Part shown: one piece after another, positions 7,659 to 58,093 of the stretch
How positions within the stretch are numbered: the first letter of the stretch is position 1
Layout: the number at the start of each line of letters is the position of its first letter
Assembly (NCBI GenBank): GCA_964465125.1
Contig: CAYXIO010000010.1
Span: 9,244 to 73,243, forward strand
Length of the DNA: 64,000 nt
Direction of reading: 5' to 3'
From: an uncultured Planctomycetales bacterium
GTDB lineage: Bacteria; Planctomycetota; Phycisphaerae; UBA1845; Fen-1342
Position numbers and translations under genes: made by a program
Notes under the pieces: generated by a model
Seen by the model: only the letters and a program-made list of their open reading frames with translations
Database searches by the model: none
Told to the model about the DNA's origin: nothing

Positions 7659-7700
7659 GCGCCGCCAACAGAACCCACCACGCGAGTGGTGGGTCGTCAG

Positions 7701-7762
7701 CCCCGCACGGGCGTGCGGGGTTCTGAAAGTCGCCGGCCCCGCACTGGCGTGCGGGGTTCTGA
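7701..7762. repeat. Two tandem copies of a 26-nt hairpin unit (family F)
   Basis: ccccgcacgggcgtgcggggttctga at 7701-7726 and ccccgcactggcgtgcggggttctga at 7737-7762. Each contains ccccgcac/gtgcgggg inverted arms. A partial copy ccccgcactggcg is at 6692-6704. Confidence 0.8.
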
Positions 7763-7793
7763 TGGGCGCGGAACTGCTCCGAAGGAGCCGCGA

Positions 7794-8324
7794 TTGCCCG
7801 CATCCAAGACCGATGTCGTCATTAAGGCCATCCAGGCGGGGCTGCTGAGCTGGCTGGTGCCGGGCGTCGGCCACTGGCGGCTTGGACACCGTGGGCTGGC
7901 CGTCGTGTTCTTCGTCGCCGTCAGTCTGCCGTATTGGACCGGCGTTGCGTTCGGCGGGATTCTCGATTCGATCAACCCGCGGACGAACAAGTGGGTGTTT
8001 CTGGCGGCCTGCGGCGTCAGTGGGTACACCGTTCCGGGGTTCTTCGTCAGCCAGACGATTGAGCGGAGCGTCCTGCGCGAGTCGGGCTTGCGGGCGGTCC
8101 CCGACTCGCTGCGTGCTCCGGAAGACCAGGTGCGGTTCGTCGAAGTGCGGAAACGGTACATGTCGTTTTTCCCGGAGTCGGATGTCGCGCAGATCTACAT
8201 CGCCAGCGCCGGGCTGCTGAACCTGCTCGTCATCCTGGACGCGATTGCCCGGGCCCAGACCGGCGGGTTGCCGACGTTCCACCGCGAGTTGGAGCCGACG
8301 GCGGCGGAAGGGGTCAGCACGTGA
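7794..8324 (+). CDS. Membrane protein, unknown function
   Basis: In-frame TTG at 7794, 6 nt after GAAGGAG. There is no in-frame ATG before the first TM segment. AGLLSWLVPGVGHWRLGHRGLAVVFFV-type N-terminal TM motif. Confidence 0.55.
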   Translation: MPASKTDVVIKAIQAGLLSWLVPGVGHWRLGHRGLAVVFFVAVSLPYWTGVAFGGILDSINPRTNKWVFLAACGVSGYTVPGFFVSQTIERSVLRESGLRAVPDSLRAPEDQVRFVEVRKRYMSFFPESDVAQIYIASAGLLNLLVILDAIARAQTGGLPTFHRELEPTAAEGVST

Positions 8325-11018: not shown

Positions 11019-11023
11019 GAAAC

Positions 11024-24608: not shown

Positions 24609-24903
24609 GGTCGATCTCCAGTAGGGGGCGCGGGGCTTTGCTGCGCAGGAGCGTCCGCCGGTCCCAGGACGTGACGGTCATCGGCGGCCGGTTCGGTCAT
24701 GCGCGGGCGAATAACGGCGTTGAGCCATGGGACGAGGGTTGCCTCTGACCCTCTGCCGGGCGGCCACGTGGGGGCCGCCACGAGCCACCCCTATCATATC
24801 GCCGCCGCCACCGGCGACGAAGCCGATTTGTAGGTTCACGTCGGATGGGGGCGTTTCCGACCGCCCGCGAGTCGGCCGGGCGCGGCGAGTACAATCCGCC
24901 GTG

Positions 24904-25875
24904 ATGGGTCTGGTCACCGCCCCGCCGGCGCTGCTCTGCGTGCGCGAACTACGCGTGCATTTTCAGACGCGCCGGGGACTGTTCCGCCGCACTGCCGCGG
25001 TGCTGCGGGCGGTGGATGGCGTTTCGCTGGAATTGCCGCGCGGCCGGACACTCGGCCTGGTGGGCGAGAGCGGGTGCGGAAAGTCCACCTTGGCCAGGGC
25101 GATTCTGCGTCTGATACCCGCCACGTCGGGCCAGGTTGTCTTCGATGGACAGGATGTTCTGGGACTTTCAGCGCGTGAGTTGCGTCGGCTGCGGCGAAGT
25201 GCGCAGCTCGTCTTTCAGGACCCCTACGGAAGTTTGAACCCGCGCCTGCGCGTCGAGACGATCGTGGGCGAAGCGCTGACCGTCCACGGCCTCGTCCGCA
25301 ACCGGGCGGAACGCCGCACGCGCGTCGCGGAGTTGCTCGGGCGGGTCGGGCTGGCCGCCGACGCACTGGACCGCTTTCCACACGAGTTCTCCGGCGGGCA
25401 GCGGCAACGCATCGGAATCGCGCGGGCGCTGGCGGTTCAACCGGCGCTGTTGGTGTGTGACGAGCCGGTGTCGGCGCTCGACGTATCGATCCAGGCGCAA
25501 ATCCTGAATCTGCTGGCCGAGCTTCAGGAGCAGTTCGGTTTGACCTACCTGTTCATTGCGCACAGCCTGGCGGTGGTGCGGCACTTGTGTGATGAGGTCG
25601 CCGTCATGTACCTGGGCCGCATCGTCGAGTACGCGCCCGCCGACGAGTTGTTCGCGAACCCGCGGCACCCGTACACGCAAGCGTTGTGCGCGGCCGCGAC
25701 CGACTTTGCCGACAGACTCGCCGGCGAGCCGCCCAGCCCGCTGGACGCGCCGGCGGGCTGTCCGTTTCAGCCGCGCTGTACGCGGGCGGAGGCGCGCTGC
25801 CAGAGCAAGTGCCCGGGCCTGGACACGCGCCCCGGACTGCCTGCGCCGCACCGCGTCGCGTGCCACTTCGCTTAG
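24904..25875 (+). CDS. ABC transporter ATP-binding protein, OppF/DppF-like (orphan)
   Basis: Walker [10 protein letters not shown], signature [15 protein letters not shown], Walker [13 protein letters not shown], and a C-terminal oligopeptide-type extension (PRHPYTQAL...CPFQPRC). No permease or binding-protein gene is adjacent. Confidence 0.85.
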
Positions 25876-26000
25876 TACTGCGTCGGTTTTTGGGGCGAGT
25901 TGGGCGTGGAGTTGTCCCGGTTTCGCACCGGCGGGACGCCGATGCTCCCGGCGCACGAGGGCGAAACCCGGCGTAGAATGCCCCGCGCGGGGCGAAGCTG

Positions 26001-30203: not shown

Positions 30204-30870
30204 CGAAACGCCCGTCCCGCATGTGCCGCACGCGGTCGGCCTGTACCGCGAGCTGCTCGTTGTGCGTAATCATCACGATCGTCTGGCCGTCCCGGCGGTG
30301 AAACTCGGTCAGCAACTCCAGCACGCCGGCCGCATTGGCGGAATCGAGATTCCCGGTCGGCTCGTCGGCCAGCAGCAGCGCGGGACGGCCGATCACGGCG
30401 CGCGCCAGGGCGACCCGCTGCTGTTGCCCCACCGAAAGCTGGCCGGGTTTCTTGTGTTCGACGCCGGTGAGTCCGACGCGCGCGAGCATCTCCGTCACTT
30501 GTCCGTCCGCCGCCACGCCGCGCAGTTGCAGCGGCAGCGCGACATTGCGGCGGACGTTCAGCGTGCGCAGCAGATTGAAGCGCTGGAAGACGAAGCCGAG
30601 GGCCGCGCGGCGCAGGCGCGTGCGGCCAGCTTCGTCGAGCGCGGGGGCGTCGTGCCCGGCGATGCGCAGGGTTTGCGCCCGCGTCGGCGTGAGCATCAGC
30701 CCGAGGATGTTGAGCAGGGTCGTCTTGCCGCAGCCGGACGGTCCCATGATGACGACGAACTCGCCTCGGCGGACATGGAAATCCAGGCCGTGCAGCACCG
30801 GCTCCACGACGCCGCCGTGCGTGTAGGCGTGGTGCAGGTCGCGCACGTCGATCATCAGGTCAGCGGTCAT
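30196..30870 (-). CDS. ABC transporter ATP-binding protein, LolD/MacB type
   Basis: [38 protein letters not shown]. Confidence 0.88.
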
Positions 30871-32036
30871 TCGGTGCTCAGGGCGACGGCGGGGTCAAGT
30901 CGGGCGGCGCGGTAGCCGGGATAGAGCGCGCTGAGGACGCCCCCGACGACGCCGATGACGATCGCGAGCGCGAGCGCGCGAAGCTCAAGTTCGACGGTCA
31001 GGAGCGGCTTGTAGAGCAGGAGACCGCCGCGGGCCGCGCAGGCGAGCGTAAGACCAAGCGCGACGCCGCCCAGCGAGATGAGCAGCGCTTCGTGTATCGC
31101 CAGTCGGATCAGCCCCGCGCGCCCGACGCCGAGGGCTTTGAGAACGCCGATTTCGCGCGTGCGTTCGATGATGGCCGTGTACATCGTCAGGAGGATGAAA
31201 AGGAAGCAGGCGACGAGGGCCACGCCGCTGGAGGCGTTCAGGTAGAGATTGACCTGCGCGAAGCTGTCGCGCAGCAGCCGCCCGTAGTCGCTTTTCAACT
31301 CGACGCGCACGTCGGTGCCCAGCTCGCGCTGGAAACGCTCGGCCGCGGCCAACGGGTCCAACCCCGGGCGGAGTTTGAGGAAGTACATGCTGGCGCTGGG
31401 CTCGCCGGAGACGACGATCTCGCGGAGCGTTTCGAGCGGGGCGAAGACGCGCCCGGCGACGCCGGCTTCGACGACGCCGACGATGCGGAAGGCCTGTCCC
31501 ATGATCTGGATTTCGTCGCCCGGGTGATAGTCCCCGACGCGCTGGAGGCGCTCGTCGATCACGAGTTCCCTGGGGAGCATGGGCCTCTGGCCCGTGCGAT
31601 CCGTCGGGTCTGCCGCAACGGAGGCGCCAAGCTCAAAGAGCCGGCCTTGCAAAACCCGCCGCGGGCCTAGAAACGCCGGCATCTGCCGCGGATCGACCCC
31701 GAACAGTCGCTGTTGCTGCCCACCCATCCGCACTTGTCCGAAGAACACGGGCACGACGTCCGCGGCCAATGGTCCGTGTTCATCGGCGGACCGGCGCAGG
31801 TGTTCTGCGTGTCCCCGGCGAAACGGGGCCCCGTTGGTGAAGATGACGTTCTCCTGGGCGGGCAGGACGACCAACTCGGCGTCAACGCTTTGCATGCGCT
31901 GATCGACCTCGGCGAGCGACCCGCTCGCCAAGCCGCGCGAGACGAGCATGAGCATGATGCCGATGCCCACGGCCAGCGCGCTGAGCAGGCTGCGGAGCTT
32001 GTGGTGCGTCAGGTTGGCCCAGGCGAGGGCAAACAC
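30867..32036 (-). CDS. FtsX-like (MacB/LolCE-type) ABC permease
   Basis: N-terminal TM segment, large periplasmic domain, then C-terminal FtsX 3-TM block (TREIGVLKALGVGRAGLIRL...). ATGA overlap with the downstream ATPase. It contains family A repeat copy A1. Confidence 0.8.
   Translation of the reverse strand: MFALAWANLTHHKLRSLLSALAVGIGIMLMLVSRGLASGSLAEVDQRMQSVDAELVVLPAQENVIFTNGAPFRRGHAEHLRRSADEHGPLAADVVPVFFGQVRMGGQQQRLFGVDPRQMPAFLGPRRVLQGRLFELGASVAADPTDRTGQRPMLPRELVIDERLQRVGDYHPGDEIQIMGQAFRIVGVVEAGVAGRVFAPLETLREIVVSGEPSASMYFLKLRPGLDPLAAAERFQRELGTDVRVELKSDYGRLLRDSFAQVNLYLNASSGVALVACFLFILLTMYTAIIERTREIGVLKALGVGRAGLIRLAIHEALLISLGGVALGLTLACAARGGLLLYKPLLTVELELRALALAIVIGVVGGVLSALYPGYRAARLDPAVALSTE
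31572..31599 (+). repeat. Family A repeat copy inside the permease CDS
   Basis: ggggagcatgggcctctggcccgtgcga. On the coding (minus) strand it is translated as RTGQRPMLP. Confidence 0.8.
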
Positions 32037-39431: not shown

Positions 39432-42005
39432 TTAGCCCGCTGGTGTCTTGGTGTTCCGGGCGCTCCGGGTCGCCTGGCGCGTGCCTTTTCGTGCGCGGCA
39501 CAGCGCGATGGTCGAGATCGTCTTCACCCCCGCCAGCAGCAACGCCGTGCTCGCCAGGCCGAACACCGGCACCAGCAACACGCCGCACACCAGCGCCCCC
39601 AGGCACGCCCCCGCGTGGTCGGCCCCGACGATCACGCCCGCCGCGGCCCCCGCCCCCGGCGTCAGCGCCAGTTGGGCGCGACCGGCCAACGCGAACGCCG
39701 CCCCACCCAGCAACCCGGTCAGGACGACCAGCCCCGAGATGGTCACTTCGACGATCGTCAGCGCGGCGGCGGCGGTCTGCAAGCCTGCCAGCCACCGCAG
39801 GATGTACGGCACGGCGAACGCCAGCCCGGCGAGCAGCACGTCAAGCAGCGCAAGCCGCGTGAAGTGGCTGCGTCTTTCACCCCCGGCGCGGGGCACGAGC
39901 GCACAGCCGAGCACCAGCCCGCCCATGAACAACGCCACGATCCACCCGATGCGCTGGTAGACGAAGCCGTAGAGGTTCTGGAACGCGAAGAGCCAGAGGA
40001 TGCTGAGCGCCATCGTCGCAAACCCCGTGCTCGCCACGGAGTACAGCAGTGCGCCGCGGGCCCACCCGGTTGCCGCGCCGTGGCGCAGACGCGGCAGCAC
40101 GAGCGTAAGCAGTGCCACGACGCCGATGCTCAGGGCCACGTCGCGCACGCGCAGCGAACTCAGCCACGCGACCACCTGCGTCCGTCCGGTCGCCGCTTCC
40201 CACAACGCCAGCCGCTGCATCAGCAGCGTCGAACGCCAGTCTGAATGAACGCTCGGTGTGTCCGCGGCGTCGAGTTCCGCGCGACGTGCCGCCACCTTGT
40301 CCGGCGTGAGCCAGTCCGTCGCCCCCGCGAACCAGGCCGGATCGAAAAGCGGGGCCGTGATCGCGCGGCGTCCGTAGCGGGCCGCCAACTCATCCGGGGC
40401 GGTGGTCAGCAACCCCGGCCGCGTTGCGGCGAAGATGTACGCTGGATCGCCCCAACTCACCAGAACTTCGGGAAACGCCGTCCGCAGCGTGGCCCGCAGC
40501 GTGCCCAGGTACCCGCGGGCCGCAGGCGTTAGATTGGTCGGTGTGGCCGCGGCGGTCAGGCAGACGACCGCGTCCGCCGTCAGCACACGGCGCAGCTCCG
40601 CGAAGAATTCCGTCGTGTACAGCCGCGCGCGCAGGGCGGTGGTCGGCTCCGGCAGGCGGGCGAGAACGAGATCGAACTGCGCGTGTTGGGTTTTCACGAA
40701 GTAGCGCGCGTCGGCGTGGTGGACCGTGACGCGCGGGTCGGCAAGCGCGGCACGATCCACTTCCGCCAGGAATGGGGCGATCATCTCAAGCTGCCGCGCG
40801 TCGGTCTCGACGTAATCCACGTGTTCCAGCGGGTGCCGCAGGATTTCCGCCAGCAGCCCTTCCGCCCCGCCGCCGATGAGCAGGACCCGCCGCGGCTGCG
40901 GGTGTTCGCACAGCCAGAAGTGCGCCAGCGGGACGTAGGTGTACGGATCGGGGAAGTCCGCGGCGACGTGTCCGTCGCAGTACAGCGTGTACTGCCCGGC
41001 CCGCCGGCCGACGGCGAGGTTTTGGTACTTCGACTCGGCGGTCGCGACCAGCTCGTAGCCGGGCGCGGTGTGGCGCCAGCGCAGCTCGAGCAGGCGTTGC
41101 TCGATGGTCCGCCCGGCGGCGGCAGCGCAGGCGAAACCCAGCAGCGCGACCGCGACCAAAGTGCGTGCGACGCCGCTTCTTGCCGCTAGCGGCACGCAGG
41201 CCGCCGCCGTCAGCACGCCGCACAGCGCGACGAGCTGGGTGGGCGGAAATCGCTCGACGGCCCAGAAGCTGAACGCCGCCCCGCCGACCAGGCTGCCGAG
41301 CGCTTCGAGGGCGTACACCTGCCCCAGCGCGAGCGCCGCACTCGCGCCCTCGTGGCGGCCCGCACCCCGCGCGGCCGCGGCGGACGCGATCGGCCGCTGT
41401 CCATTGGGCCTTTCGTCGCGTGCGTTGCACAGACTGATAGTCTGTGCTCCACCAGATGCGTCGCGCAGACTGATAGTCTGTGCTCCACCGGATGCGTCGC
41501 ACAGACTGATAGTCTGTGCTCCACTCCGAGGGAACTTGCCCCTTTGAATGGCGCACGCCAACGGAAACGCCACCCCCACGAGCATCCCCACCGGTGTCAC
41601 CAGCACGGCGCCGGCTAACGCGACGCGCGGCAGAGGGAGCAGTTCTCCCGGTCCGACGCCCAGCCAGGCCCGCGCCCCGCGAAACGCACACAACTCGACG
41701 CCGGCGACGACGGGTAGCGCCAGCAAGACCGCGCTCAGCAGGGCCACGGCCTTTCCTTGCACGCGCTCCGCCACCCGGCCGCCGGCGGCGCCGCCCAGCG
41801 CCACCCCCGCCAGCCAGGCACACAGCACCAACCCCCACGCAAACTCGCTACCGTACAGCAGCACGGTTGCCTCGCGCAGCAGCAGCGCTTGCAGCACCAG
41901 CGCTTGAATCCCCCAGACAATGACAACCGCCGCCAGCCACAGACACGCCGCCCGACCGCCGGACTTCGCGTCCGACGGGCTGTAGTCCTCAACCGCGGGC
42001 GGCAT
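39432..42005 (-). CDS. Fused polytopic membrane / spermidine-synthase-like (SpeE-fold) protein
   Basis: N- and C-terminal multi-TM blocks flank VLLIGGGAEGLLAEILRHPLEHVDYVETDARQLE...DPRVTVHHADARYFV...FDLVLARLPEP. It contains an in-frame 3 x 36-bp family B array. Confidence 0.7.
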   Translation of the reverse strand: MPPAVEDYSPSDAKSGGRAACLWLAAVVIVWGIQALVLQALLLREATVLLYGSEFAWGLVLCAWLAGVALGGAAGGRVAERVQGKAVALLSAVLLALPVVAGVELCAFRGARAWLGVGPGELLPLPRVALAGAVLVTPVGMLVGVAFPLACAIQRGKFPRSGAQTISLCDASGGAQTISLRDASGGAQTISLCNARDERPNGQRPIASAAAARGAGRHEGASAALALGQVYALEALGSLVGGAAFSFWAVERFPPTQLVALCGVLTAAACVPLAARSGVARTLVAVALLGFACAAAAGRTIEQRLLELRWRHTAPGYELVATAESKYQNLAVGRRAGQYTLYCDGHVAADFPDPYTYVPLAHFWLCEHPQPRRVLLIGGGAEGLLAEILRHPLEHVDYVETDARQLEMIAPFLAEVDRAALADPRVTVHHADARYFVKTQHAQFDLVLARLPEPTTALRARLYTTEFFAELRRVLTADAVVCLTAAATPTNLTPAARGYLGTLRATLRTAFPEVLVSWGDPAYIFAATRPGLLTTAPDELAARYGRRAITAPLFDPAWFAGATDWLTPDKVAARRAELDAADTPSVHSDWRSTLLMQRLALWEAATGRTQVVAWLSSLRVRDVALSIGVVALLTLVLPRLRHGAATGWARGALLYSVASTGFATMALSILWLFAFQNLYGFVYQRIGWIVALFMGGLVLGCALVPRAGGERRSHFTRLALLDVLLAGLAFAVPYILRWLAGLQTAAAALTIVEVTISGLVVLTGLLGGAAFALAGRAQLALTPGAGAAAGVIVGADHAGACLGALVCGVLLVPVFGLASTALLLAGVKTISTIALCRARKGTRQATRSARNTKTPAG
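41424..41527. repeat. Three tandem 36-bp units of the family B palindrome inside the CDS
   Basis: Units start at 41427, 41463 and 41499 (gc[ag]cagactgatagtctgtgctccac...). They are translated as GAQTISLCDASG / GAQTISLRDASG / GAQTISLCNARD. Confidence 0.9.
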
Positions 42006-42067
42006 GGCACGGTCTCCGGTTCGGCGACTGGGCGGTATGATAGCGGGGTCTACGAGGCAGGCGACGT

Positions 42068-42790
42068 ATGCCCACCTTCTTCGCACGCCGGTACTTTCGG
42101 CCGGTCGCGGCGGTCAGCCGCACCGAGCAAGCTGTCGGTGCCTTCATTCTGCTGCTGCTGGCGGTCATTTTCGGCGGCATGGCGTGGCACGTGCGCTCGG
42201 ACCGTGACGACCCGTTTGCCCCCGTGCTCGTCGGCGAACCCGCCCGCGCCTGGCAGTTTCCGGAGCTGCCGGGCTGGCAGCCGCCCGAAGCCGCGGAACA
42301 CTACGCCTCGGATGAGCTGTACCTGAAGATCAACGGTCGGGCGGAGTTTTACCTTCAACATCAGGTCACGGGCCTGGTCTTTGGGACATATACCCATGTG
42401 CTGAACCCGGACCGGACGATCGATGTCTACTGCTACACGATGCGCACAGCGGAGGCCGCCCGTGCCGCGTACGAGGCGGAGAAACCCGCGGACGGCATCG
42501 CTCTTGACAGCGACGCCACGGGTTATACATCGGCGGGTGCCGTGTTTGCCTGCGTCGCCGCACACTACCTTCAGGTGTTGCCCGCCCGCGAAGCCGCGGA
42601 GGACGCCGCCGCCGCACGCGACTTGATGGTCCGCCTGTCTGCCGCGGTGCTGAATGGATGTGCGCGAATGGGGGGCGCCTGTCCGAGCCGCGAGCGCAAG
42701 CTCGCGGACATACTGGCGACCGCTCGCGCGGTCGGCTCGGATCTGCGCGGCCGAATCGCGCACGGTGCTTTAGGTCTTGGCCAGCCGTGA
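42068..42790 (+). CDS. Membrane-anchored protein of unknown function, first gene of the DUF362/polyferredoxin operon
   Basis: N-terminal TM segment AVGAFILLLLAVIFGGMAW. Its last ~40 codons are encoded by family C repeat copy 1. Its stop overlaps the next ATG (GTGATG). Confidence 0.55.
   Translation: MPTFFARRYFRPVAAVSRTEQAVGAFILLLLAVIFGGMAWHVRSDRDDPFAPVLVGEPARAWQFPELPGWQPPEAAEHYASDELYLKINGRAEFYLQHQVTGLVFGTYTHVLNPDRTIDVYCYTMRTAEAARAAYEAEKPADGIALDSDATGYTSAGAVFACVAAHYLQVLPAREAAEDAAAARDLMVRLSAAVLNGCARMGGACPSRERKLADILATARAVGSDLRGRIAHGALGLGQP
42649..42767 (+). repeat. MITE-like 119-nt palindromic element, family C, copy 1
   Basis: gctgaatggatgtgcgcgaatgg...ccgaatcgcgcacggtg. It has internal long inverted symmetry (gtgcgcgaat / attcgcgcac-like ends; gtccgagccgcgagcg / cgctcgcgcggtcggctcgga). 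A second copy is at 60107-60225. Confidence 0.85.
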
Positions 42791-46549: not shown

Positions 46550-46631
46550 CGGCCGCGCGAGGCGCGGGCCGCTGCGCGGCGCCGCCGGGGCGGCTTGGTC
46601 GCCCGGCTGGTGATACAATTCCGGCTCTGCT

Positions 46632-47639
46632 ATGCCAACCGGGAAGGCCATCGCCATCGTCGGTGCCACGGGCGCCGTGGGACAGGAGTTCTGCACGGTA
46701 CTCCGCGAGCGGCGGTTCCCCGTCGCCACGGTGCGCCTGTTCGCCTCAGCCCGTTCGGCCGGGCAGACGGTTGGCGGGCCGCTTGGACTTGCGCTCGTCG
46801 AGGAGCTGACGGCGGACTCGTTCAGCGACATCAACCTCGCGCTGTTTTCCGCCGGCGCGGCCGTCAGCCGCGAGTACGCACCGCGGGCCGTGCGGGCCGG
46901 GGCGGTTGTGATCGACAACTCGTCGGCCTTCCGTTCGGACCCGGCGGTGCCGCTCGTCGTCCCGGAGATCAACCCGCAGGACGCCCGGCGGCATCACGGC
47001 ATCATCGCCAACCCGAACTGCTCGGCGATCATCATGCTGGTCGCGCTCTGGCCGCTGCACCGGCGCTGGCGCGTCCGCCGCGTTGTGGTGAGCACGTATC
47101 AGGCGGCGAGCGGCGCGGGGGCGCGGGCGCTGGCGGAATTGGAGAGCCAGTCGCGGGCGGTGCTCGCGGGTCAGGCGGTCCGGCCGGAGGTCTTCCCCGT
47201 ACCGTGCGCGTTCAACGTGTTCAGCCACAACAGCCCGGTCGGCCCCGACGGCTACAACGGCGAAGAGTCCAAGATCATCGCGGAAACCCGCAAGATCCTC
47301 GGCGATGACGCCATCCAGGTCGCGCCGACGTGCATGCGTGTGCCCGTGCTGCGGGCGCACACCGAGGCGCTGAGCGTCGAATTCGCGGAGCCTATCGAGG
47401 TGGACGCGGCCCGCGCCGCGCTCGCCGCGGCGCCGGGCGTGCGGGTCGTTGACGATCCGGCCCGCAATCACTTCCCGACGCCGCTCGAAGCCGCGGGTGG
47501 CGACGACGTGCTCGTGGGCCGTCTGCGGCACGACCCCAGCGTGCCGGACGGCCGCGGCATGCAGCTCATCTGCGCGGGCGACCAGCTCCGCAAAGGCGCG
47601 GCGTTGAACGCGGTGCAGATCGCAGAGCTGCTGCCGTGA
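46632..47639 (+). CDS. asd: Aspartate-semialdehyde dehydrogenase
   Basis: IAIVGATGAVGQEF, active-site NPNCSAIIM, SGAGARAL, MRVPVLRAHTEAL. Confidence 0.92.
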   Translation: MPTGKAIAIVGATGAVGQEFCTVLRERRFPVATVRLFASARSAGQTVGGPLGLALVEELTADSFSDINLALFSAGAAVSREYAPRAVRAGAVVIDNSSAFRSDPAVPLVVPEINPQDARRHHGIIANPNCSAIIMLVALWPLHRRWRVRRVVVSTYQAASGAGARALAELESQSRAVLAGQAVRPEVFPVPCAFNVFSHNSPVGPDGYNGEESKIIAETRKILGDDAIQVAPTCMRVPVLRAHTEALSVEFAEPIEVDAARAALAAAPGVRVVDDPARNHFPTPLEAAGGDDVLVGRLRHDPSVPDGRGMQLICAGDQLRKGAALNAVQIAELLP

Positions 47640-47649
47640 CGGCGCTCGC

Positions 47650-47715
47650 GGGGAGCATGGGCCTCCGGCCCGTGCGTGGAGCGCGATTCGCACGGGCCAG
47701 AGGCCCATGCTCCCC
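47650..47715. terminator. Long perfect-type hairpin formed by an inverted pair of family A repeats; candidate bidirectional terminator
   Basis: Arms ggggagcatgggcctccggcccgtgcg (47650-47676) and cgcacgggccagaggcccatgctcccc (47689-47715). It lies between the convergent asd and the 47726 gene. There is no U-tract, so function is inferred only from position. Confidence 0.5.
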
Positions 47716-47725
47716 GTGCGTCTGC

Positions 47726-48847
47726 CTACCGCAAGAAACTCGTCAGCCGCTTGATCGTCAGCCGGTCGCAATCGTCGATGGTCTTGGGTGAGATTTCCTT
47801 GAAGTCCTCCCACTGGTTGTTCTGGAAATCGACGATGACCCAGTCGCCGGACTTTTCGCACAGGACGAAGTGCGTGCCGCCCGCGGGGCCGCCGGCAGGG
47901 TCCACGTAGTAGTCGGCGAGAAGTACGTACGGAGTCTCCGGCGGATTGGCCTTGACCCGCTCGCGAAACGCGCGGGCCAGATCCCAGAGCCGCTTCTGCT
48001 GGTTGCTCGATGGCGCCACGTCGATCCGCATGGGCTGGTCGAGCGCGACGGTCTGGCAGCCGAGCTTCTGCGTGAGGGACTCCGCCAGCCGGGTGGCGCT
48101 CTCCGCGTTCGACGTATCACCAACGCGCGTCGCGTAGACGCCGATCCGCGCCGCCTTCAGATCGGCTTTCAATTTCTCCACCCGCTGCTTCATCGCGTCG
48201 CGCTCGGCGTCGCTGGGTGTGCCGGACTTCTCGGCCCAGAGGCGCGCGAACTTGCCCTCGCCTTTGGCCGCGCGGCCGTTCTTCTTCCAGTGCAGTTGCG
48301 AGAAAACCCGTTCGGCGACGAGGGCTGAGCAGCCCATCGGGTCCGGATCGGCCCCGGCGGTGCGCTTGAAGTCGGCGTCCTTGGGCGTTTGGCGATCGCG
48401 GATTACAAGCTGGCCGGACGCGTCGGCGATCAGCCAGCGCACCTCGGTTGGGCCGGTCTTCGGCTCGCCCAGATACTCCGCGTACAGCGCGTAAGCCGTC
48501 TTCGGCGGGTTCTGCTTGAGAAACTCGCCGAAGCGGGCCGGCATTTCTTCCCACGTGGTGTCCGCGGCGGGATTGAACTCGCCGGCGGCGCTCTCGAGGT
48601 TCGACATGCCGTGCTTCTCGAGCATCAGTCCAACGGCGTCGCCGACGTTGCGGTTGGGTTTGCCGACGACGCGCACCGGGTAGATCGTCAGCGTCGCGGC
48701 GGGGCCGGCGGCCTGGAGGGCCGCGAGCCGCTGAGCGGCGTCAGCGCCAGGCTGGGACTGTGCTTGCGCCGCGGGCGCCACGCCCAGCGCAACGAGTCGC
48801 ACGGCGACCCGCACGACCCCGAGTAAAGAGCACGATCGGTGTGACAT
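47726..48847 (-). CDS. Secreted protein of unknown function with internal duplication
   Basis: AAGGAGA lies 6 nt before ATG 48847. Signal peptide ...LVALGVAPAAQAQ. The two halves share NPP[KE]T.Y.L.A.Y...P ... G..VI.D. Confidence 0.55.
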   Translation of the reverse strand: MSHRSCSLLGVVRVAVRLVALGVAPAAQAQSQPGADAAQRLAALQAAGPAATLTIYPVRVVGKPNRNVGDAVGLMLEKHGMSNLESAAGEFNPAADTTWEEMPARFGEFLKQNPPKTAYALYAEYLGEPKTGPTEVRWLIADASGQLVIRDRQTPKDADFKRTAGADPDPMGCSALVAERVFSQLHWKKNGRAAKGEGKFARLWAEKSGTPSDAERDAMKQRVEKLKADLKAARIGVYATRVGDTSNAESATRLAESLTQKLGCQTVALDQPMRIDVAPSSNQQKRLWDLARAFRERVKANPPETPYVLLADYYVDPAGGPAGGTHFVLCEKSGDWVIVDFQNNQWEDFKEISPKTIDDCDRLTIKRLTSFLR

Positions 48848-48927
48848 GGCCATCTCCTTGTGAAAGTCACTGGCTGTGTAATTGGATACTTACATTACAA
48901 GCACACGGACAAATGGTCTCGATTCGC

Positions 48928-51149: not shown

Positions 51150-51323
51150 ATGAAGAAGAAGACTGCACCTCCAGAAGATCCCGTCGTGGCCGAAGTGCGT
51201 GCGATCCGGCGGAAGATCTGGAAGGAGGCCGGTGGGACGTTCGAGGGCCTCCAGCGCTACCTGGACCGCGTGGTTCCAGTCGCCAAGCCGCGCCGCCCCA
51301 AGCGGGTGCGGCCTCGGCCTTGA
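51150..51323 (+). CDS. Small basic protein of unknown function
   Basis: GGAGG lies 6 nt before the ATG. MKKKTAPPEDPVVAEVRAIRRKIWKEAGG... Its stop overlaps the candidate uvrA start. Confidence 0.45.
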   Translation: MKKKTAPPEDPVVAEVRAIRRKIWKEAGGTFEGLQRYLDRVVPVAKPRRPKRVRPRP

Positions 51324-54300
51324 TCCGTGAGCGCCGCGTGCAGGGGAGGCACGGGAGACCGCACGCTCAGGCCGCCCAGGGAGCGCGGCGTACCAACGGC
51401 GCGGTCCCCTGGCTCACCGTGCGCGGGGCCACCCATAACAACCTCAAGCACATCGACGTGCGCTTCCCGCTCGGGCGGTTTGTGGGCGTCACGGGCGTCT
51501 CCGGCTCGGGCAAGAGCTCGCTGGTCAACGACATCCTCTACGCCGCGCTCGCCCGTGAGTTGAACAAGGCCACGACACTTGAACCCGGCCCACACGCCGG
51601 CCTCGACGGCCTCCCGCACCTCGACAAGGTCATCGCGATCGACCAGTCGCCGATCGGCCGCACGCCGCGCAGCAACCCGGCGACGTACATCAAGGTCTTC
51701 GACGAAATCCGCGACCTGTTCGCCGAGCTGCCGGACGCGAAGCTGCGCGGTTACAAGCCGGGGCGGTTCAGCTTCAACGTGGCGACGGCGCGTGGCGGGG
51801 GGCGCTGCGAGGCGTGCGAGGGCAACGGGGCCAACCGCATCGAGATGGACTTCCTGGCGGACGTGTGGGTGACCTGCCCGGTGTGCGAAGGCCGGCGGTT
51901 CAGCCGCGAAACGCTCCAGATGCACTTCAAGGGCCAGTCGATCCAGGACGTGCTCGAAATGGAGGTCGGCGCGGCGCTCGAATTGTTCGAAAACCAGGGC
52001 CGCATTCGCAACATGCTCCAGACGCTGCACGACGTGGGGCTCGACTACATCAAGCTCGGGCAGTCGAGCACGACGCTCTCCGGCGGCGAGGCGCAGCGCA
52101 TCAAGCTGGCCCGCGAGCTGGTCAAGAAGCCGACCGGCCGGACGCTGTACGTCCTGGACGAACCCACCACCGGCCTGCACTTCGCGGACATCCGCAAGCT
52201 GCTGACGGTGCTGCACAGCTTCGTCGACGCCGGCAACACCGTCGTTGTGATCGAACACAACCTCGACGTGCTCAAGACCGCCGATTGGATCATCGATCTC
52301 GGCCCCGAGGGCGGCGAGGCCGGCGGCGAGGTCGTCGCCGCGGGCACGCCTGAGGACGTGGCGGCGTGTGCGGCGTCGTATACCGGGCAGGCGTTGCGGA
52401 GCGTGCTCGGCGCGAAGTCCGATGTCAGAAGTGTGATAGAAGTCAGAAGTCAGAAGTCAGAGGCCCCGGAGCGCGCTGGGCAAGGCGCGACTGGTACTTC
52501 TGACTTCTCACTTCATACTTCTCACTTCGTTTCTGTCGTCGGCGCGCGCCAGCACAATCTGAAAGACCTCACCGTCTCCTTTCCGCGCGACCGGATGACC
52601 GTCTGCACCGGCGTGTCGGGTTCGGGCAAGACCAGCTTCGCGATCGACACCGTTTTCACGGAGGGCTATCGGCGCTACGTCGAGTCGCTGTCCGCGTACG
52701 CCCGCCAGTTCCTCGGGCAGATGGCCAAGCCGGCGGTGGACCACGTCCACGGCCTGTCGCCGGCCATCTGCATCGAGCAGCGGGCCGCGGGCAAGAGCCC
52801 GCGCTCGACAGTCGGCACCGTCACCGAAATCTACGACTACATGCGCGTCTTGTGGGCCCGCATCGGCACGCGCTACTGCCCGCACTGCGACGTGCCCATC
52901 GGCACGCAGACCGCCGATGAAATCGTCGCGCGCGTCATGGCCCTCGACGAGGGCACGCCGATCATCCTGCTCGCCCCTATCACGCTGGGCGACGGCGAAT
53001 CGTACGCGGGGCTGTTCAACCGGCTGAAAGCATCGGGCTACACACGTGTGCGGATCGACGGCGAGATTCGCCTGACGGCCCACGCTGCAACGCTCGATGT
53101 CCGCCGCAAGCACCGCGTCGAAGTGGTCGTCGATCGGACGGTCGTACGCGGCAAGTCGCGCGGCCGGATCGCCGAGAGCATCGAGCACGCGCTCTCGCTC
53201 GGCAATGGCGTGATGACGTTGCTCGTCGAGGCCGTGGAGACGGTTGCGGAAGAGGGGCACGAAGGCACGAAGGCACGAAGGCACGAAGGGGAGCATCGGC
53301 CTCCGGCCGGTGCGGTTGGGGAGCATGGGCCTCCGGCCCGTGCAGATGTGAGCGAGGACGGAGAGCCGGGCCCATCCGTTCCCACCTTCCCACCTTCCCA
53401 CGTGCTCACGACTCCCGCCCGCGAATTCATGTACTCGCAGAAGCTCGTCTGCACCCGCTGCGGCACGAGCTTCGAGGAACTCGGCCCCCACCACTTCAGC
53501 TTCAACAGCCCGCTGGGCTGGTGCGAAACGTGCGAGGGCCTCGGCGTGCAACGCGGGGCGCCCGCCGCCGCCATCATCGCCCGGCCCAATCGCACGCTGT
53601 TCGACGGGGCCATCGCCGGCTGGGCACGCATCGAGCGGCGTTCACCGCTGGGCCGTCTGCTGACGAAACTGTGCGAGCACCTGGGGGTGGGCCCCGAAAC
53701 GCCGCTGCGCGACTGGACCGCGGAGCAACGCCGGACGCTGATGTTCGGCGCGGACGGCGGCACGTGGCTCGACGGCGGCGCGCTGTCCGCGGGCGTCCGC
53801 TTCGGCTGGCGGGGTTTTTTCCCCACGATCGACCACGCCACGCGCACTTCGTGGTCGTTCCGGCACCAACTCCGCCACGTGGTCACCGAGATTCCCTGCG
53901 TGACCTGTCGCGGCGGACGCCTGCGGCCGGACGCGGCGGCGGTGCGGCTCGGCGAGGCGTCGATCGTGAAGGTCTGCGAGCTGCCGCTGGCGCAGGCGGC
54001 GGCGTTCTTCCGCGACCTGAAGCTCGACGCCCGCGCGCGGCGGATCGCCGGCGAGTTGCTCAAGGAGACCCGCGATCGCCTCCAGTTTCTGCTGGACGTG
54101 GGGTTGGACTACCTGACGTTGCACCGCGCCGCGCCGACGCTGTCCGGCGGCGAAGCGCAGCGGATTCGGCTCGCCAGTCAGATCGGCAGCGGGCTGTCCG
54201 GCGTTTTGTACGTGTTGGATGAGCCGACGATCGGCTTGCACCCGCGCGACACGCAACGGCTCGTCGATGCGCTGCTCAAGCTGCGTGACTTGGGGAACAC

Positions 54301-56314
54301 GCTGCTGCTGGTCGAACACGACCGCGACGTGATCCGCCGAGCGGATCGGCTGCTGGACTTCGGTCCCGGCGCGGGGGTCACCGGCGGCCGGATCGTCGCG
54401 CAAGGCGTGCCCGCCGAGTTCGTCGGGGAGCATCGGCCTCCGGCCGGTGTGGCTGTCGGCGAAGCTGAAGAGGCGCCCGAGTCTCTGACGCGCGGCTACC
54501 TGTCCGGTCAGATCGCGATTCCGATCCCGCGGAATCGCCGGCCGGTGGACCACGAAACGACCTGGCTCGTCGTCCGCGGCGCGCGGCAGAACAACCTCAA
54601 GCACATCGATGTGCCCATCCCGCTTGGCCGGTTCGTCTGCATTACCGGCGTTTCCGGCTCCGGCAAGAGTTCACTGGTCAGCGACATCCTCTGGCCGGCC
54701 CTGGCCAACACGTTAAACAACGCGAGCCTGACGGTCGGCGACCACGACGACATCGAAGTCGGCACGCGGTCGAGTGCAGATGGCCCCTTCGTCGCTGCAT
54801 CGCTGCGGCGCTTCTTCGCGCGGCGCGGCGACGCGGCCATCGACAAGGTCATCAACGTCGACCAGTCGCCGATCGGCACCACGCCCACCAGCAACCCGGC
54901 CACCTACACCGGCGTCTTCGACGGCATCCGCGAGCTGTTCGCCCGGCTGCCCGACTCGAAGATGCGCGGCTACAACGCCAACCGCTTCAGCTTCAACCGC
55001 CCCGGCGGGCGCTGCGAACCGTGCGAGGGCTACGGCCAGCGGCGGATCGAGATGCACTTCATGCCCGACGTGTGGGTCGAGTGCGACACCTGTCGCGGGC
55101 GGCGTTACAACCCCGAGACGCTCGCGGTGCGCTTCAAGGGCAAGAACATCGCCGACGTGCTCGACCTACGGGTCAACGAGGCCCTGGAATTGTTCGCGAA
55201 CGTGCCGCGGCTGCGGCGGATGCTCCAGACGCTTGCCGACGTCGGCTTGGATTACGTGCAGCTCGGGCAGCCGGCGCCGACGCTCTCCGGGGGCGAGGCG
55301 CAGCGCGTGAAGCTGGCCGCGGAGTTGGGTCAGCCCGACACCGGCCGCACGTTCTACATTCTCGATGAGCCGACCACGGGGCTGCACTTCGACGACATCC
55401 GCAAGCTGCTGAGCGTGATCCACCGGCTCGTCGATCTGGGCAACTCCGTCCTCGTCGTTGAGCACAACCTCGACGTGCTGAAGTGCGCGGATTGGCTCAT
55501 CGACCTCGGCCCCGAGGCTGGCGACGATGGCGGGTATATCGTCGCCGCGGGCACGCCCGAGCAGATTGCAAATGCAGAATGCAGAAGGAAGAATGCAGAA
55601 GAATCGTCCGCCGCGGATGGGGTTTCTGCATTTTGCATTCTGCCTTCGGCATTTGCTTCACATACGGCCGCAGCGCTGCGGCCGGTACTCGCCGCCGGCC
55701 CGTACGAAGACCGCAAGCCCCACGATCCCGCCGCACACGCCGCCCGCACGCTCGCCGCGGAGAAGGCCGGCTTCGGCGACGTGGGCCGCGAGGTGCGGAT
55801 GCCGTGGCAGGTGGACGGCCGCAAGTGGCACCTTGAGCAGCGCGGCACGCGCGACGACCAGCCGCGGCGGTGGGAGCCGGCGGCGCTCGAACATGTCGTT
55901 GACCTCGTGCAGAAGACCGGGCGCGCGGCACGACCGAACGGTGCGGACAATCTGTTTGCGGCCACGAATTGGAACGAGCGCGCCAGCGTCGAAATCACCG
56001 CGCCGGAGGCGGCGTACTGGTTCCTGCACGCCCTGACTGGCGGCGAGTGGCTGCTGGAGCTGTACTTCCGCACCCCGCCGGGCACGTTCAAGTGGCGGGC
56101 CTTGGACGCCGAACTCGGCCTGAAGACGCTTGACGAGCGGAAGGATCTGGAGACCTACGGCGATTGGGCGCGGGTGGACGTGCGGCCCCGCGTGGACGGC
56201 TGGGAGGCGGTCGTTGTGTACGTCCACGACCGCACCGAGATCGACACACCCGCGTTCCGCAAGTTCATCAAGCAGGCGGTGGCCGCGTATCAAAAAGGGC
56301 TCGGGCTCGTGTGA
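51320..56314 (+). CDS. uvrA: Oversized excinuclease ABC subunit A: extra N-terminal NBD-II-type module + complete UvrA + ~220-aa C-terminal domain
   Basis: Three Walker A sites are present: [27 protein letters not shown] and [13 protein letters not shown]. There are three LSGGEAQR signatures. UvrA-specific motifs include [37 protein letters not shown], zinc modules CEACEG..CPVCEG and CEPCEG..CDTCRG, and a UvrB-binding-type [17 protein letters not shown]. The start is TTG 51320 or GTG 51338. Confidence 0.88.
   Translation: [1664 protein letters not shown]
52415..52529 (+). repeat. Lower-GC hairpin-forming insert (type G) translated in frame in uvrA
   Basis: The left arm is rich in tcagaag units (gtcagaagtgtgatagaagtcagaagtcagaagtcagagg). 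The right arm is gtacttctgacttctcacttcatacttctcacttcg. A GC-rich spacer separates them. Confidence 0.8.
53257..53405 (+). repeat. Composite insert in uvrA: (gcacgaag)x4 + two family A copies + (ccaccttc)x2
   Basis: 8-mers at 53257-53288. Family A copies at 53288-53314 and 53318-53344. ccaccttc units at 53382-53397. Translated as [48 protein letters not shown]. Confidence 0.85.
54425..54450 (+). repeat. Family A repeat copy in the uvrA NBD-I/NBD-II linker
   Basis: ggggagcatcggcctccggccggtgt, translated as GEHRPPAGV. Confidence 0.8.
55568..55656 (+). repeat. Lower-GC hairpin-forming insert (type H) translated in frame in uvrA
   Basis: Left arm gcaaatgcagaatgcagaaggaagaatgcagaag. Right arm tttctgcattttgcattctgccttcggcatttgc. 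Translated as [30 protein letters not shown]. Confidence 0.8.
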
Positions 56315-57449: not shown

Positions 57450-57861
57450 GGTCACACACCTCCTTCGTTGACCATTTCCACGCCGCCGCGCCGGGACGCA
57501 CCCGTAACGCGCAGCGGCTTCTCACGCGGGCGGCACGCCTTCCGTGGCGTCCGATTCCCTGGCCTGGCCGACCCGCCGGATTCGGGGAGGCATTCGCGAC
57601 AGCGAATCCGACGGTGTCAGTGTACGGTATTTGTTAGGTCATGTAAAGCCCAACCTCACCGCCTTTCGGCGGCGTTCTTCCGCTGGCTCCGCCGCCCTGT
57701 CGCACGAATCGCGATGTTGCATCCGTGAAACATTGCTAGGCGCGCAATCGCCCCATCGGCGGACAAAGCCTGGGGTAAACACCTGTAACATTAGGATTTA
57801 CCCCAATACGCGGAGTCGCTTTGGTGCAGTGACGCAGAATCACCGCATCGTATCTGGGTGC

Positions 57862-57890
57862 GGAGCTGGGGCCTCCGGCCCGTGCGAATC
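57862..57890 (+). repeat. Degenerate family A repeat copy in the radical-SAM leader
   Basis: ggagctggggcctccggcccgtgcgaatc. Confidence 0.65.
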
Positions 57891-58093
57891 CCGGCGCGCG
57901 GCTCGTCGCGCGAACTCGGCACAGATCCGCGCACGTCCGGGTCGACGCAGGCCGGGGCGCGACGTAGAATCTCCCACTGTTGGGCCGGACAGACTGATCA
58001 GGTATGTAGCGCCCGCGCTAGCCAGGAGCCGTGCGCGATCTTCTGGCGCCTGTGCCGGCTGGCGAGCACCTGCGGCGCGCATGAAAGGCAAGC

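Follow-up and report, generated by a model that had tools for sequence, protein, structure and literature searches.

Dispersed hairpin units and tandem octamer arrays in frame within an interdomain linker of a planctomycete UvrA

A segment of about 150 nt in a giant uvrA gene is probably a cluster of non-autonomous repeat DNA, lodged in a permissive linker at the surface of UvrA and with the reading frame running through it (probability roughly 0.8). Two kinds of repeat make up this cluster. One is a 26-nt hairpin unit of the REP/REPIN type, dispersed in a Phycisphaerae-like clade of Planctomycetota, and the other consists of short tandem 8-nt arrays of recurrent families that elsewhere serve as the arms of foldback elements. 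Purifying selection on the repair gene would permit the survival of frame-preserving variants only. The product would be a loop of roughly 49 amino acids in which Gly, Pro, Glu, His and Arg abound, most likely without a function of its own. All positions below refer to the window, the contiguous 64-kb stretch of DNA that was analysed.

The segment and its host gene

In the host ORF, a full UvrA is preceded by an additional N-terminal ABC module and followed by a C-terminal extension; Pfam matches are to UvrA_inter, UvrA_DNA-bind and ABC_tran. Its homologues are 1600-1800 aa long and, among the matches listed, up to 76-79% identical. GC1/2/3 values outside the linkers are 0.69/0.48/0.90. Every intragenic uvrA repeat noted here lies in this ORF, in linkers 1-4. 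The ORF and the parts of the segment are as follows.

51320..56314, plus strand: giant uvrA ORF, 1664 aa by mechanical start (ORF list and translation)
53256..53289, plus strand: tandem octamer array (GGCACGAA)x4.2, from TRF and a repeat search, 100% matches; translated as HEGTKARRHEG
53288..53313, plus strand: hairpin unit copy 1 (GGGGAGCATCGGCCTCCGGCCGGTGC), 0 mismatches; read as GEHRPPAGA; local 9-bp stem, 3-nt loop
53318..53343, plus strand: hairpin unit copy 2 (GGGGAGCATGGGCCTCCGGCCCGTGC), 0 mismatches; read as GEHGPPARA
53344..53378, plus strand: degenerate spacer with a decayed inverted copy of the unit (inverted repeat I1)
53379..53401, plus strand: tandem octamer array (TTCCCACC)x2.9, from a tandem-repeat search; translated as PTFPPSH

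All of 53256-53401 is in frame within the uvrA ORF. The initial annotation placed octamers, two direct hairpin units and further octamers on the far side at this location; all are present there, and the ORF is open across them and yields exactly the peptide that had been quoted. The two units are spaced 30 nt start to start. Copy 2 belongs to the other subfamily, in which a C-G stem pair is replaced by G-C in a compensatory manner. The segment had also been described as consisting only of repeats, which is true of the arrays and units but not of 53344-53378. This stretch contains no exact repeat and instead carries the decayed inverted unit copy (I1 arms 53314-53331 and 53369-53386, 72% complementary). 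The repeats are indeed in frame, but the segment is probably a layered structure rather than the single composite insertion originally envisaged.

The segment stays in frame because stop codons are missing from all six frames of the unit and from the coding strand of both arrays. The intact ORF and the coding signature on both sides suggest that the segment is translated.

Folded as RNA, the whole 150 nt has no significant structure (z = -1.0), and one large hairpin or global palindrome over this length was rejected on that value. The only local folds are the 9-bp hairpins of the two units (z = -2.4). By direct reading, the flanking GGCACGAA and TTCCCACC arrays are not mutually complementary, with matches at 5 of 8 positions.

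An arrangement of two genes split by an open intergenic spacer was rejected, since the segment lies inside the canonical UvrA chain. Residues 256-260 of a solved UvrA structure are contiguous, and the coding signature runs on in the same frame on both flanks of the segment. An intein or intron was also rejected, as the segment has no such features and is built entirely of dispersed-repeat sequence. Rfam at gathering thresholds returned two tRNAs only; the uvrA region gave one sub-threshold microRNA match, attributed to chance.

A permissive linker

The site is the linker at the end of the UvrB-binding domain, before the following zinc module. This linker is 58 aa long here, compared with a 3-residue connection at residues 256-260 of M. 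tuberculosis UvrA (3ZQJ). Across 24 aligned orthologues (71-79% identity), the block spanning the site varies from 52 to 110 residues and has unrelated low-complexity content. An AlphaFold2 model assigns pLDDT values of 44-58 and no secondary structure to fragment residues 127-176, while the preceding domain scores 82-98, so that the linker is predicted to be disordered. On the basis of the hypervariability in orthologues, the correspondence with 3ZQJ and this model, the site is permissive.

The nucleotide composition of the linker is also distinct. GC3 is 0.64 in the segment, whereas the rest of uvrA has a mean of 0.906 +/- 0.048 in 50-codon windows and never falls below 0.78. By this measure, the DNA of the segment is not adapted as coding sequence.

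The proposal of an insertion implied that orthologues would lack a conserved homologous peptide at this position. None was seen in the hypervariable block of the 24 aligned sequences, and a unit-derived peptide, in any of six frames, occurs in none of the 120 UvrA homologues among the matches listed. Because of this absence, the three unit copies in uvrA (two in the segment and one in linker 3, described below) are specific to this lineage. The hairpin units thus appear to be lineage-specific additions. In contrast, the left array may be old at this linker, because a 74%-identical orthologue (L120) has an octamer array of that family at the corresponding place. A plausible history begins with an octamer array already at this linker. 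Hairpin units would then have been gained beside it in this lineage, and the arrays would lengthen or shorten via replication slippage.

A scan of metagenome contigs with a degenerate DNA pattern for the conserved left flank found no same-species relative, only two distant orthologues (L125, L126). Strain-level presence/absence polymorphism was likewise not found among the matches listed, in which the closest UvrA is only 76-79% identical. The 49-aa repeat peptide retrieved no candidate with three common 5-residue words from a collection of 5.8 billion proteins, a result that is uninformative on hosts.

Dispersed units, arrays and foldbacks

The hairpin unit GGGGAGCATSGGCCTCCGGCCSGTGC is 26 nt long. 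At up to 3 mismatches it occurs nine times in the window, against a mean of 0.00 over 100 dinucleotide-preserving shuffles, and five of these nine copies lie outside gene models. Copies reported previously at 47650/47690, 57860, 54425 and 31572 were all recovered, and two that had been overlooked are present at 14130 and 25925. The copies outside the segment are listed below.

14130..14155, minus strand: intergenic unit copy, 1 mismatch
25925..25950, minus strand: intergenic unit copy, 3 mismatches, 50 nt downstream of gene 24724..25875(+)
31572..31597, plus strand: unit copy inside a MacB_PCD/FtsX permease gene (30867..32036, minus strand); read as RTGQRPMLP
47650..47715, no single strand: intergenic heads-out inverted doublet (REPIN-like), ~30-bp hairpin, fold z = -9.5
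54425..54450, plus strand: hairpin unit copy 3 in uvrA, linker 3, 1 mismatch; same phase, GEHRPPAGV
57860..57885, plus strand: degenerate intergenic unit copy, 3 mismatches, within a larger repeat common to related MAGs

The doublet sits between the convergent gene models 46614..47639(+) and 47726..48889(-). The permease copy is 26/26 identical in a 92%-identical relative (L127, from JGI sample 3300024333) and missing in 14 more distant orthologues, which bear another segment that is 11 aa longer. The larger repeat around the degenerate copy (57822-57899) has 92% identity to two related loci (L111 and L031).

Related genomes contain the unit in abundance. Its exact pattern matches at least 119 stretches in at least 16 MAG assemblies of Phycisphaerae, and more than 200 copies, mostly intergenic, are found in at least 16 Phycisphaerae MAGs. 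In a census of related loci that allowed up to 4 mismatches (210 copies), inverted doublets account for 109 copies. All of these are heads-out, none has the opposite order, and the spacers have a median length of 12 nt. In 131 of 136 copies the two variable positions of the stem can pair, such that the stem is kept by compensatory C-G/G-C change. Coding-like ORFs hold only ~5 of 130 exact foreign copies. Among the hosts is a gene judged by sequence to be urocanase (HutU)-like (L086), which contains a composite of an array and two units read as ERSHEG-EHGPPARG-EHGPLARA; units also occur inside KsgA-like, ValS-like, Fmt-like and membrane-protein ORFs. The expectation that the unit recurs elsewhere in the genome is borne out by its abundance in the window and in related genomes, where most copies are intergenic. 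The unit is a real dispersed repeat family, and this family is mostly extragenic.

These counts bear on the idea that the segment is an ordinary low-complexity linker generated by local slippage or duplication, with only a coincidental likeness to intergenic sequence, or else an assembly artefact at a repeat. All orthologues do have a low-complexity linker here, and assemblies of related MAGs often break at the unit, with 21 of 210 copies located at contig ends. Nevertheless, uvrA carries three 26-nt copies, two of them perfect and the third with one mismatch, from a family whose chance expectation in the window is 0 and which has hundreds of members in other genomes. On either side of the segment, the frame is unbroken and the gene stays collinear with its orthologues within a contiguous 64-kb window, and the GC3 signature is that of DNA that did not evolve as coding sequence of uvrA. 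A local or artefactual origin is therefore hardly credible. The assembly breaks do have a practical side, in that such repeats fragment MAGs, and low-complexity insertions of this type can confuse the annotation and alignment of planctomycete proteins.

The unit may be mobile. The most likely route of spread would be mobilisation of single-stranded hairpins by a RAYT-like Y1 (HUH) transposase; alternatively, copies could exchange sequence through gene conversion or recombination. A tblastn search with an approximate RAYT query detected no RAYT-like protein in the window or near units in the ~1 Mb of related loci. It matched once, in L046, at a gene that encodes a Y1_Tnp domain (Pfam 29.1 bits) and is flanked by a different hairpin family.

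Repeats are not confined to linkers 2 and 3 of this uvrA. Two strong foldbacks that the initial annotation does not mention occupy linkers 1 and 4.

52438..52528, plus strand: foldback in uvrA linker 1, (AGAAGTC)x3.4, GC-rich core hairpin, (ACTTCTC)x4.7; fold z = -6.5; GC3 0.46
55561..55653, plus strand: foldback in uvrA linker 4, (GCAGAAT)x5.9, core hairpin, (TTCTGCA)x4.3; fold z = -4.7; GC3 0.38

The linker 1 foldback is translated as EVRSQKSE...TSDFSLHTSHF. Together, the window and ~1 Mb of related MAG DNA contain 131 arrays of period 7-8, many in inverted pairs and at least 42 in coding-like ORFs. The two arrays of the segment belong to different though similar families. Arrays of the GGCACGAA family occur at 8 places in the ~1 Mb, including a complete intergenic foldback (L100 6023-6243), and this unit family is also found in uvrA linkers of L120. 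Two or more arrays of the GGTGGGAA family occur in the same DNA. Linker 1 of the L120 orthologue (11123-11214) holds a full foldback in which a TTCCCACC-type array is paired with its reverse complement, (GGTGGGAA/GTGGGAAG)n. Arrays can also flank REP-type hairpins, as in L019 4333-4779, where (AGGGAAC)21 is followed by three hairpin units and (CCCTGTT)17.

In this genome and in five others examined as DNA, all four interdomain linkers of uvrA contain structured repeats. The orthologues share array families, yet have them at different linkers, and other lineages carry other REP-like hairpins at the site of the segment (two with GTAG tags in L121 and a similar one in L125). In the cultured Phycisphaerae bacterium RAS1 (L122), (AGAAGTC)n foldbacks occupy uvrA linkers 2 and 3. 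Repeat filling of uvrA linkers is a general pattern. One giant repair protein has four linkers, each filled independently in different lineages by the same few repeat families, which constitutes a clean and multiply replicated natural experiment in the conversion of non-coding repeat DNA to protein sequence.

The recurrence of repeats at the four domain boundaries of uvrA in many lineages could also mean that they are selected rather than tolerated. The hairpins and foldbacks might be cis-acting DNA or RNA structures at uvrA domain boundaries, with the peptide as a by-product. Possible roles include ribosome pausing for co-translational folding of a multidomain protein of 1664 aa, mRNA processing or stability, and provision of protein-binding sites as for REP/BIME. 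Two structures fold very stably (z = -6.5 and -4.7), compensatory change preserves the unit's stem, and REPs have been proposed to act in mRNA stability and supercoiling (PMC3733652). However, recognition of the hairpin by a transposase would equally predict stem conservation. Linker content varies among orthologues in family, number and orientation, and some have short repeat-free linkers (for example, linker 4 of P0011, P0018, P0021 and P0038). Moreover, 53256-53401 itself has no significant global structure (z = -1.0), and elsewhere the units are overwhelmingly intergenic. Selection for such structures is quite improbable.

A second selective scenario treats the arrays as slippage-prone frameshift switches. 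Units of 7 and 8 nt are not multiples of three, so any single-unit slip shifts the frame, and six such arrays lie in one repair gene. The outcome would be a contingency locus that reversibly inactivates uvrA and gives rise to transient subpopulations with a mutator or hyper-recombining phenotype; Di Nocera et al. offered the speculation that mutator states may be favoured by REPs inserted into repair genes (PMC3733652). Yet there are only ~3-6 copies per array and the arms are often imperfect (79-80% matches at 52496-52528, 55561-55600 and 55624-55653), both of which lower slippage rates. All 120 listed homologues are full-length (at least 1575 aa), although truncated forms score lower and might go unlisted. 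A contingency function is very improbable.

In a further reading, the 7-8-nt arrays and REP-type hairpins may jointly form one distinct class of bacterial foldback, with tandem-repeat arms and one or more hairpin cores. Such a class would be active across a Phycisphaerae clade, nest preferentially within existing arrays and, in a systematic way, colonise interdomain linkers of housekeeping genes (uvrA, valS, hutU, ksgA, fmt and purH). This unification is speculative and rather unlikely. If true, it would give the elements, through their non-triplet arrays, a built-in means to restore or switch frame by slippage.

Comparison with known repeat systems

The Rickettsia palindromic element (RPE), put forward originally as the precedent for this segment, was reportedly described by Ogata et al. 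in 2000 as a palindromic repeat present in frame in genes for functional proteins, including DNA-repair genes. RPEs are tolerated at surface or linker positions and are single elements of about 100-150 bp. The uvrA segment is similar in that it is in frame, leaves the ORF intact and occupies a variable linker tolerated by the fold, and its composite length of ~150 nt is near that of RPE-1. Unlike an RPE, it intersperses 26-nt hairpins with tandem arrays of 8-nt units and has no significant fold as a whole (z = -1.0). The resemblance would be one of outcome only, and homology is implausible because the host belongs to a different phylum and has a 68% G+C genome. As a precedent, the RPE is therefore apt for its outcome, a palindromic repeat in frame in a tolerant loop, but a closer one exists in the intragenic REPs reported in PMC3733652.

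A MITE was considered and rejected, since the GGCACGAA and TTCCCACC arrays at the ends of the segment are not complementary and the whole has no significant fold. No direct duplication is visible at the segment borders, and no related IS was identified.

The SDR repeats of cyanobacteria, which Elhai et al. are said to have described in 2008, are reportedly mobile 21-27 nt repeats that contain hairpins. They are also said to be nested in other repeats, including tandem heptamers, and sometimes to lie in genes. The segment would be similar in these respects, with no sequence relationship.

Dispersed heptamer arrays have close parallels in Xanthomonas, where GGGAATC arrays are scattered through the genome, mostly intergenic and 7-11% intragenic (Rehm et al. 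2015, PMC4692102). Each genome has 70-75 pairs of arrays on opposed strands that are capable of forming stem-loops (PMC4692102). The STRR arrays of cyanobacteria, cited in that article, are a further example. The 7-8-nt families described above similarly occupy many loci, often as opposed pairs. They differ in unit sequence, most are not G-quadruplex motifs, they often flank REP-type hairpins and the fraction in coding sequence appears higher. Furthermore, the arrays of the segment are built of 8-nt units and lack mutual complementarity.

The closest known counterparts of the hairpin unit are REPs (repetitive extragenic palindromes) and REPINs (PMC3733652; Bertels & Rainey 2011, PMC3116915). 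REPs are short imperfect palindromes of 20-40 nt; the unit, at 26 nt, folds into a 9-bp stem closed by a 3-nt loop. Both occur in many dispersed copies, most of them outside genes, where they often follow a gene or separate two convergent ones. As in REPINs, units often form inverted doublets that yield a long hairpin (about half of the copies in related genomes); those in uvrA, unlike a REPIN, are a head-to-tail dimer and a single unit.

Intragenic REPs, in many cases within genes for replication and repair, were surveyed by Di Nocera, De Gregorio & Rocco in 2013 (PMC3733652). In this survey, such REPs are recorded in both uvrA genes of Opitutus terrae (PVC superphylum), in uvrA of Thioalkalivibrio and in others, and tagged REP families are reported in Planctomycetes. 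There, as here, a minority of copies lie in frame in genes as singles, head-to-tail dimers or clusters, and repair genes including uvrA are recurrent hosts. The unit differs from the super-families defined in that survey in having GGGGAG at its outer end and neither GTAG nor CGTC in its consensus. Its position between tandem 8-nt arrays is not an arrangement known for REPs, and the passages of the survey consulted do not name the host clade of Phycisphaerae-like MAGs.

In-frame REPs in uvrA are thus already known (PMC3733652), and the segment is a clear new example of this phenomenon. It extends an earlier unexplained observation, the presence of REP-type repeats in uvrA and other repair genes, to a new phylum-level group and to a REP family without a GTAG or CGTC tag, and it physically ties REP-type hairpins to dispersed tandem arrays of 7-8 nt.

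The repeat segment within uvrA

The window (67.7% G+C) carries a UvrA-like reading frame in which Pfam recognizes UvrB-interaction and UvrA DNA-binding domains in addition to ABC modules. Between the UvrA blocks ...LSLGNGVMTLLVEAVETVAEEG and ...REFMYSQKLVCTRCG lies a segment of about 150 nt made of short tandem arrays and a 26-nt hairpin repeat, the unit. Other variable interdomain stretches, or linkers, hold further repeats.

Features of the uvrA reading frame (z, fold stability against shuffled sequence)
51320..56314, plus strand: UvrA-like ORF, 1664 aa (ORF list, translation)
52438-52528: foldback of (AGAAGTC)n, core hairpin and (ACTTCTC)n, in frame in another linker; z = -6.5
53256-53289: tandem octamer array (GGCACGAA)x4.2, left end of the segment
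53288-53313: unit, copy 1, GGGGAGCATCGGCCTCCGGCCGGTGC
53318-53343: unit, copy 2, GGGGAGCATGGGCCTCCGGCCCGTGC
Between copy 2 and the right array: 35-nt stretch ending in a decayed inverted unit copy
53379-53401: tandem array (TTCCCACC)x2.9, right end of the segment
55561-55653: foldback of (GCAGAAT)n, core hairpin and (TTCTGCA)n, in frame in another linker; z = -4.7

Every particular of the repeat layout in the initial annotation is confirmed at the DNA level, and translation of the ORF reproduces the open frame and low-complexity peptide quoted there. Its palindromic emphasis holds for the two units, which are the only local 9-bp hairpins in the segment. The segment as a whole, however, is not a foldback: it folds no better than shuffles (z = -1.0), and its flanking arrays lack complementarity to each other. 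Inverted arms at 53314-53331 and 53369-53386 are 72% complementary. Both foldbacks in the other linkers have GC-rich core hairpins and arms that are inverted tandem heptamer arrays.

The unit has no stop in any of its six frames, and direct reading finds no stop triplet on the coding strand of either array; insertions that keep frame are readable. A flawless (GACTTCT)n arm would place an in-frame TGA every 21 nt, and the right arm at 52496-52528 departs from the repeat precisely there.

Outside the four linkers, uvrA has G+C of 0.69/0.48/0.90 at the three codon positions, and its 50-codon windows average 0.906 +/- 0.048 at third positions (GC3) and never drop below 0.78. At 0.64, the segment is therefore not ameliorated coding sequence. 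Across about 39 crude gene models, 24-codon GC3 dips occur at six sites, three of which are these uvrA repeats.

In this UvrA, an extra N-terminal ABC module (window 51395-52414) shares 62% identity with the protein's own C-terminal nucleotide-binding domain (54560-55570). About 215 aa at the C-terminus form a conserved extension without a Pfam match, and relatives in Pirellulales and Gemmataceae are as long as 2300-2450 aa.

A variable domain junction

The segment occupies a permissive site, a disordered, variable domain junction, and the ORF is intact. The stretch that separates GVMTL from SHVLTTPAREF is 58 residues long and, against solved structures, matches residues 256-260 of Mycobacterium tuberculosis UvrA (3ZQJ), where the chain returns from the UvrB-binding domain into the core. 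In an AlphaFold2 model of a 270-aa fragment (28 homologues used), pLDDT is 82-98 in the UvrB-binding domain and 44-58 in fragment residues 127-176, which lack secondary structure and are flanked by two strands.

When this UvrA is aligned with 24 homologues sharing its architecture (71-79% identity), the block at query residues 628-712, of which about 30 are conserved flanks, varies in length between 52 and 110 residues, and its low-complexity content is unrelated from orthologue to orthologue. A unit-derived peptide is in none of the 120 UvrA homologues listed as best matches, all six frames checked. In keeping with the annotated insertion, neither the aligned nor the listed proteins conserve a homologous peptide here; the unit copies in uvrA are lineage-specific.

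The linkers were also compared at the DNA level in five orthologues (L120-L124), four linkers each.

Repeats in orthologous uvrA linkers (L120-L124 pooled)
L120-L124: (GTGGGAAG)n/(TTCCCACC)n foldbacks
L120-L124: (GGCACGAA/GGCACGGA)n arrays
L120-L124: (AGCGAGT)n/(ACTCGCT)n foldbacks
L120-L124: (AGAAGTC)n foldbacks
L120-L124: (GGGAACA)n arrays
L121, position of the segment: GTAG-tagged hairpin GTAGCGGCCGACCCCCGTGTCGGCCGT, two copies in direct orientation

One array family can occupy different linkers in different orthologues, and AGAAGTC-type peptides are seen at all four linker sites. The octamer array is probably older than the hairpin units, because L120 (UvrA 74% identical) has a (GGCACGGA)n array at the equivalent position, with a Megablast alignment of both genes running through it, and H-E-G-like residues open the linker in several orthologues. 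The REP-type hairpin family that follows the array position varies by lineage: the window has the unit, the homologous proteins P0001, P0005 and P0012 have GTAG-tagged hairpins or ones like them, and P0004, P0006 and P0007 have GEGEAPAEP-type repeats. These differing families suggest that the array, or the spot itself, may be a favoured landing place.

Dispersed units, arrays and other host genes

The unit belongs to a real, mainly extragenic, REPIN-like family. As the initial annotation had claimed, it recurs elsewhere: nine copies occur in the window at up to three mismatches, where 100 shuffles average 0.00. Three are in uvrA (the segment's two and 54425-54450), one is in a permease gene, and five lie outside crude gene models (14130, 25925, 47650/47690, 57860). 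The pair at 47650-47715, between convergent genes, forms an approximately 30-bp hairpin (z = -9.5).

When one genome per bacterial species was scanned with the exact pattern, at least 119 stretches in at least 16 assemblies matched; all matches listed come from MAGs labelled Phycisphaerae or Planctomycetota. Of 136 exact-pattern copies of the unit, 131 have complementary bases at the two variable positions of the stem. At up to four mismatches, the listed MAG loci hold 210 copies, of which 109 form inverted doublets, every one heads-out (median spacer 12 nt); the remainder are single (67), direct repeats (13) or at contig ends (21).

TRF detects 131 arrays with periods of 7-8 in the window together with about 1 Mb of related DNA; many form inverted pairs, and at least 42 are in coding-like ORFs. 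Recurrent families are AGCGAGT (13), AGAAGTC (10), GGCACGAA (8), GGGAACA (6) and GCAGAAT (5).

Elements in related MAG loci and a unit in a second window gene
L019 4333-4779: full element, (AGGGAAC)21, unit, inverted unit, second inverted unit, (CCCTGTT)17
L100 6023-6243: complete intergenic (GGCACGAA)n foldback
Window 31572-31597: unit copy inside a MacB_PCD/FtsX permease gene (minus strand)

The MacB-like permease (30867-32036, minus strand) shares its unit 26/26 with a 92%-identical relative (L127). Fourteen more distant orthologues lack the unit and have another segment there, 11 aa longer, such that the unit-encoded RTGQRPMLP accompanies a net loss of 11 aa. Orthologues P0125 and P0127 carry unrelated Pro-rich insertions in the same periplasmic-domain loop, which is therefore another permissive site.

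Further units are found within KsgA-like, ValS-like, Fmt-like and membrane-protein ORFs, and the composite of an octamer array plus two units recurs in a urocanase-like ORF (L086), where it reads ERSHEG-EHGPPARG-EHGPLARA; these hosts are named from a reading of their sequences. Three appear to be housekeeping genes of related MAGs, each with several repeat-derived in-frame segments: L066 (KsgA-like) has (SLTLRGSD)x5, L076 (ValS-like) multiple HGPEAHAP/EHGRLARA units, and L086 ARAGGPCSP plus (TGGTPTLP)x4.

The window contains other repeats. A 36-nt palindromic unit, TGCGTCGCACAGACTGATAGTCTGTGCTCCACCAGA (x2.9 tandem, 41421-41524), is read in frame as SGAQTISLCDAS x3 in an 884-aa ORF with a spermidine-synthase domain (39432..42086, minus strand); GC3 dips there, with coding-like composition on both flanks, and 28894-28925 holds a related repeat of 16 nt. 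The DUF6677 ORF at 7686..8324 (plus strand) has at its 5' end a 36-nt hairpin unit, GTCGCCAGCCCCGCACGGGCGTGCGGGGTTCTGAAA, in 1.9 tandem copies (7693-7762), probably upstream of the true start. Dispersed repeats of about 100-170 nt (42645-42781, 60107-60241, 11137-11247, 62333-62429, 6663-6829) are 89-97% identical to several contigs of related MAGs, chiefly CAYMXT binchicken_co16_147. In one family the termini are GTTGAAAAAGGG...CCCTTTTTCAAC, and one copy lies directly behind two tRNA genes at 10935-11097.

Mechanism and comparison with known systems

Presumably, the arrays lengthen and shorten through slippage, and the units would spread by a Y1/HUH transposase or recombination. The segment is probably translated, as a neutral loop. 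A RAYT-like probe has no match in the window, and it matches related DNA once, at a Y1_Tnp domain in L046 that has hairpins of another family on its flanks. This locus (5363-7828, minus strand; Phycisphaerae MAG F1F2.bin.474) encodes an 821-aa PurH with an MGS domain and a split AICARFT_IMPCHas. An IS200-like Y1_Tnp (PF01797, 29.1 bits, aa 356-437) lies in frame between the halves, with REP-like hairpins of GGGCTTCCAGCCC type on either side. The arrangement resembles an entire RAYT-plus-REP unit that has entered a linker between domains and left the frame open.

The anatomy of the unit matches REPs arranged as REPINs (PMC3116915). The RAYT-like probe revealed no cognate transposase for it in the window or the related DNA. 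According to Di Nocera et al. 2013 (PMC3733652), catalogued REP super-families are tagged GTAG or CGTC, whereas the unit's conserved outer end is GGGGAG. The same paper places REPs inside genes in several species, with inserts in both uvrA genes of Opitutus terrae, in Thioalkalivibrio uvrA and in Rickettsia conorii uvrB; it adds that such insertions may be neutral owing to flexible linker or loop positions, and that Planctomycetes have tagged REP families. Dispersed heptamer arrays in Xanthomonas form 70-75 convergent pairs per genome and are 7-11% intragenic (Rehm et al. 2015, PMC4692102). The phenomenon is therefore already known. The literature searched, with incomplete coverage, yielded no account of such intragenic repeats in Planctomycetota.

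The annotated feature is real and rightly observed, and its interpretation was right in outline. Novelty lies in the untagged repeat family, in the clade that carries it, in REP-type hairpins being physically nested within 7-8-nt arrays, and in how broad the uvrA example is. The segment is not a new principle but a good system for studying how proteins absorb repeat DNA.
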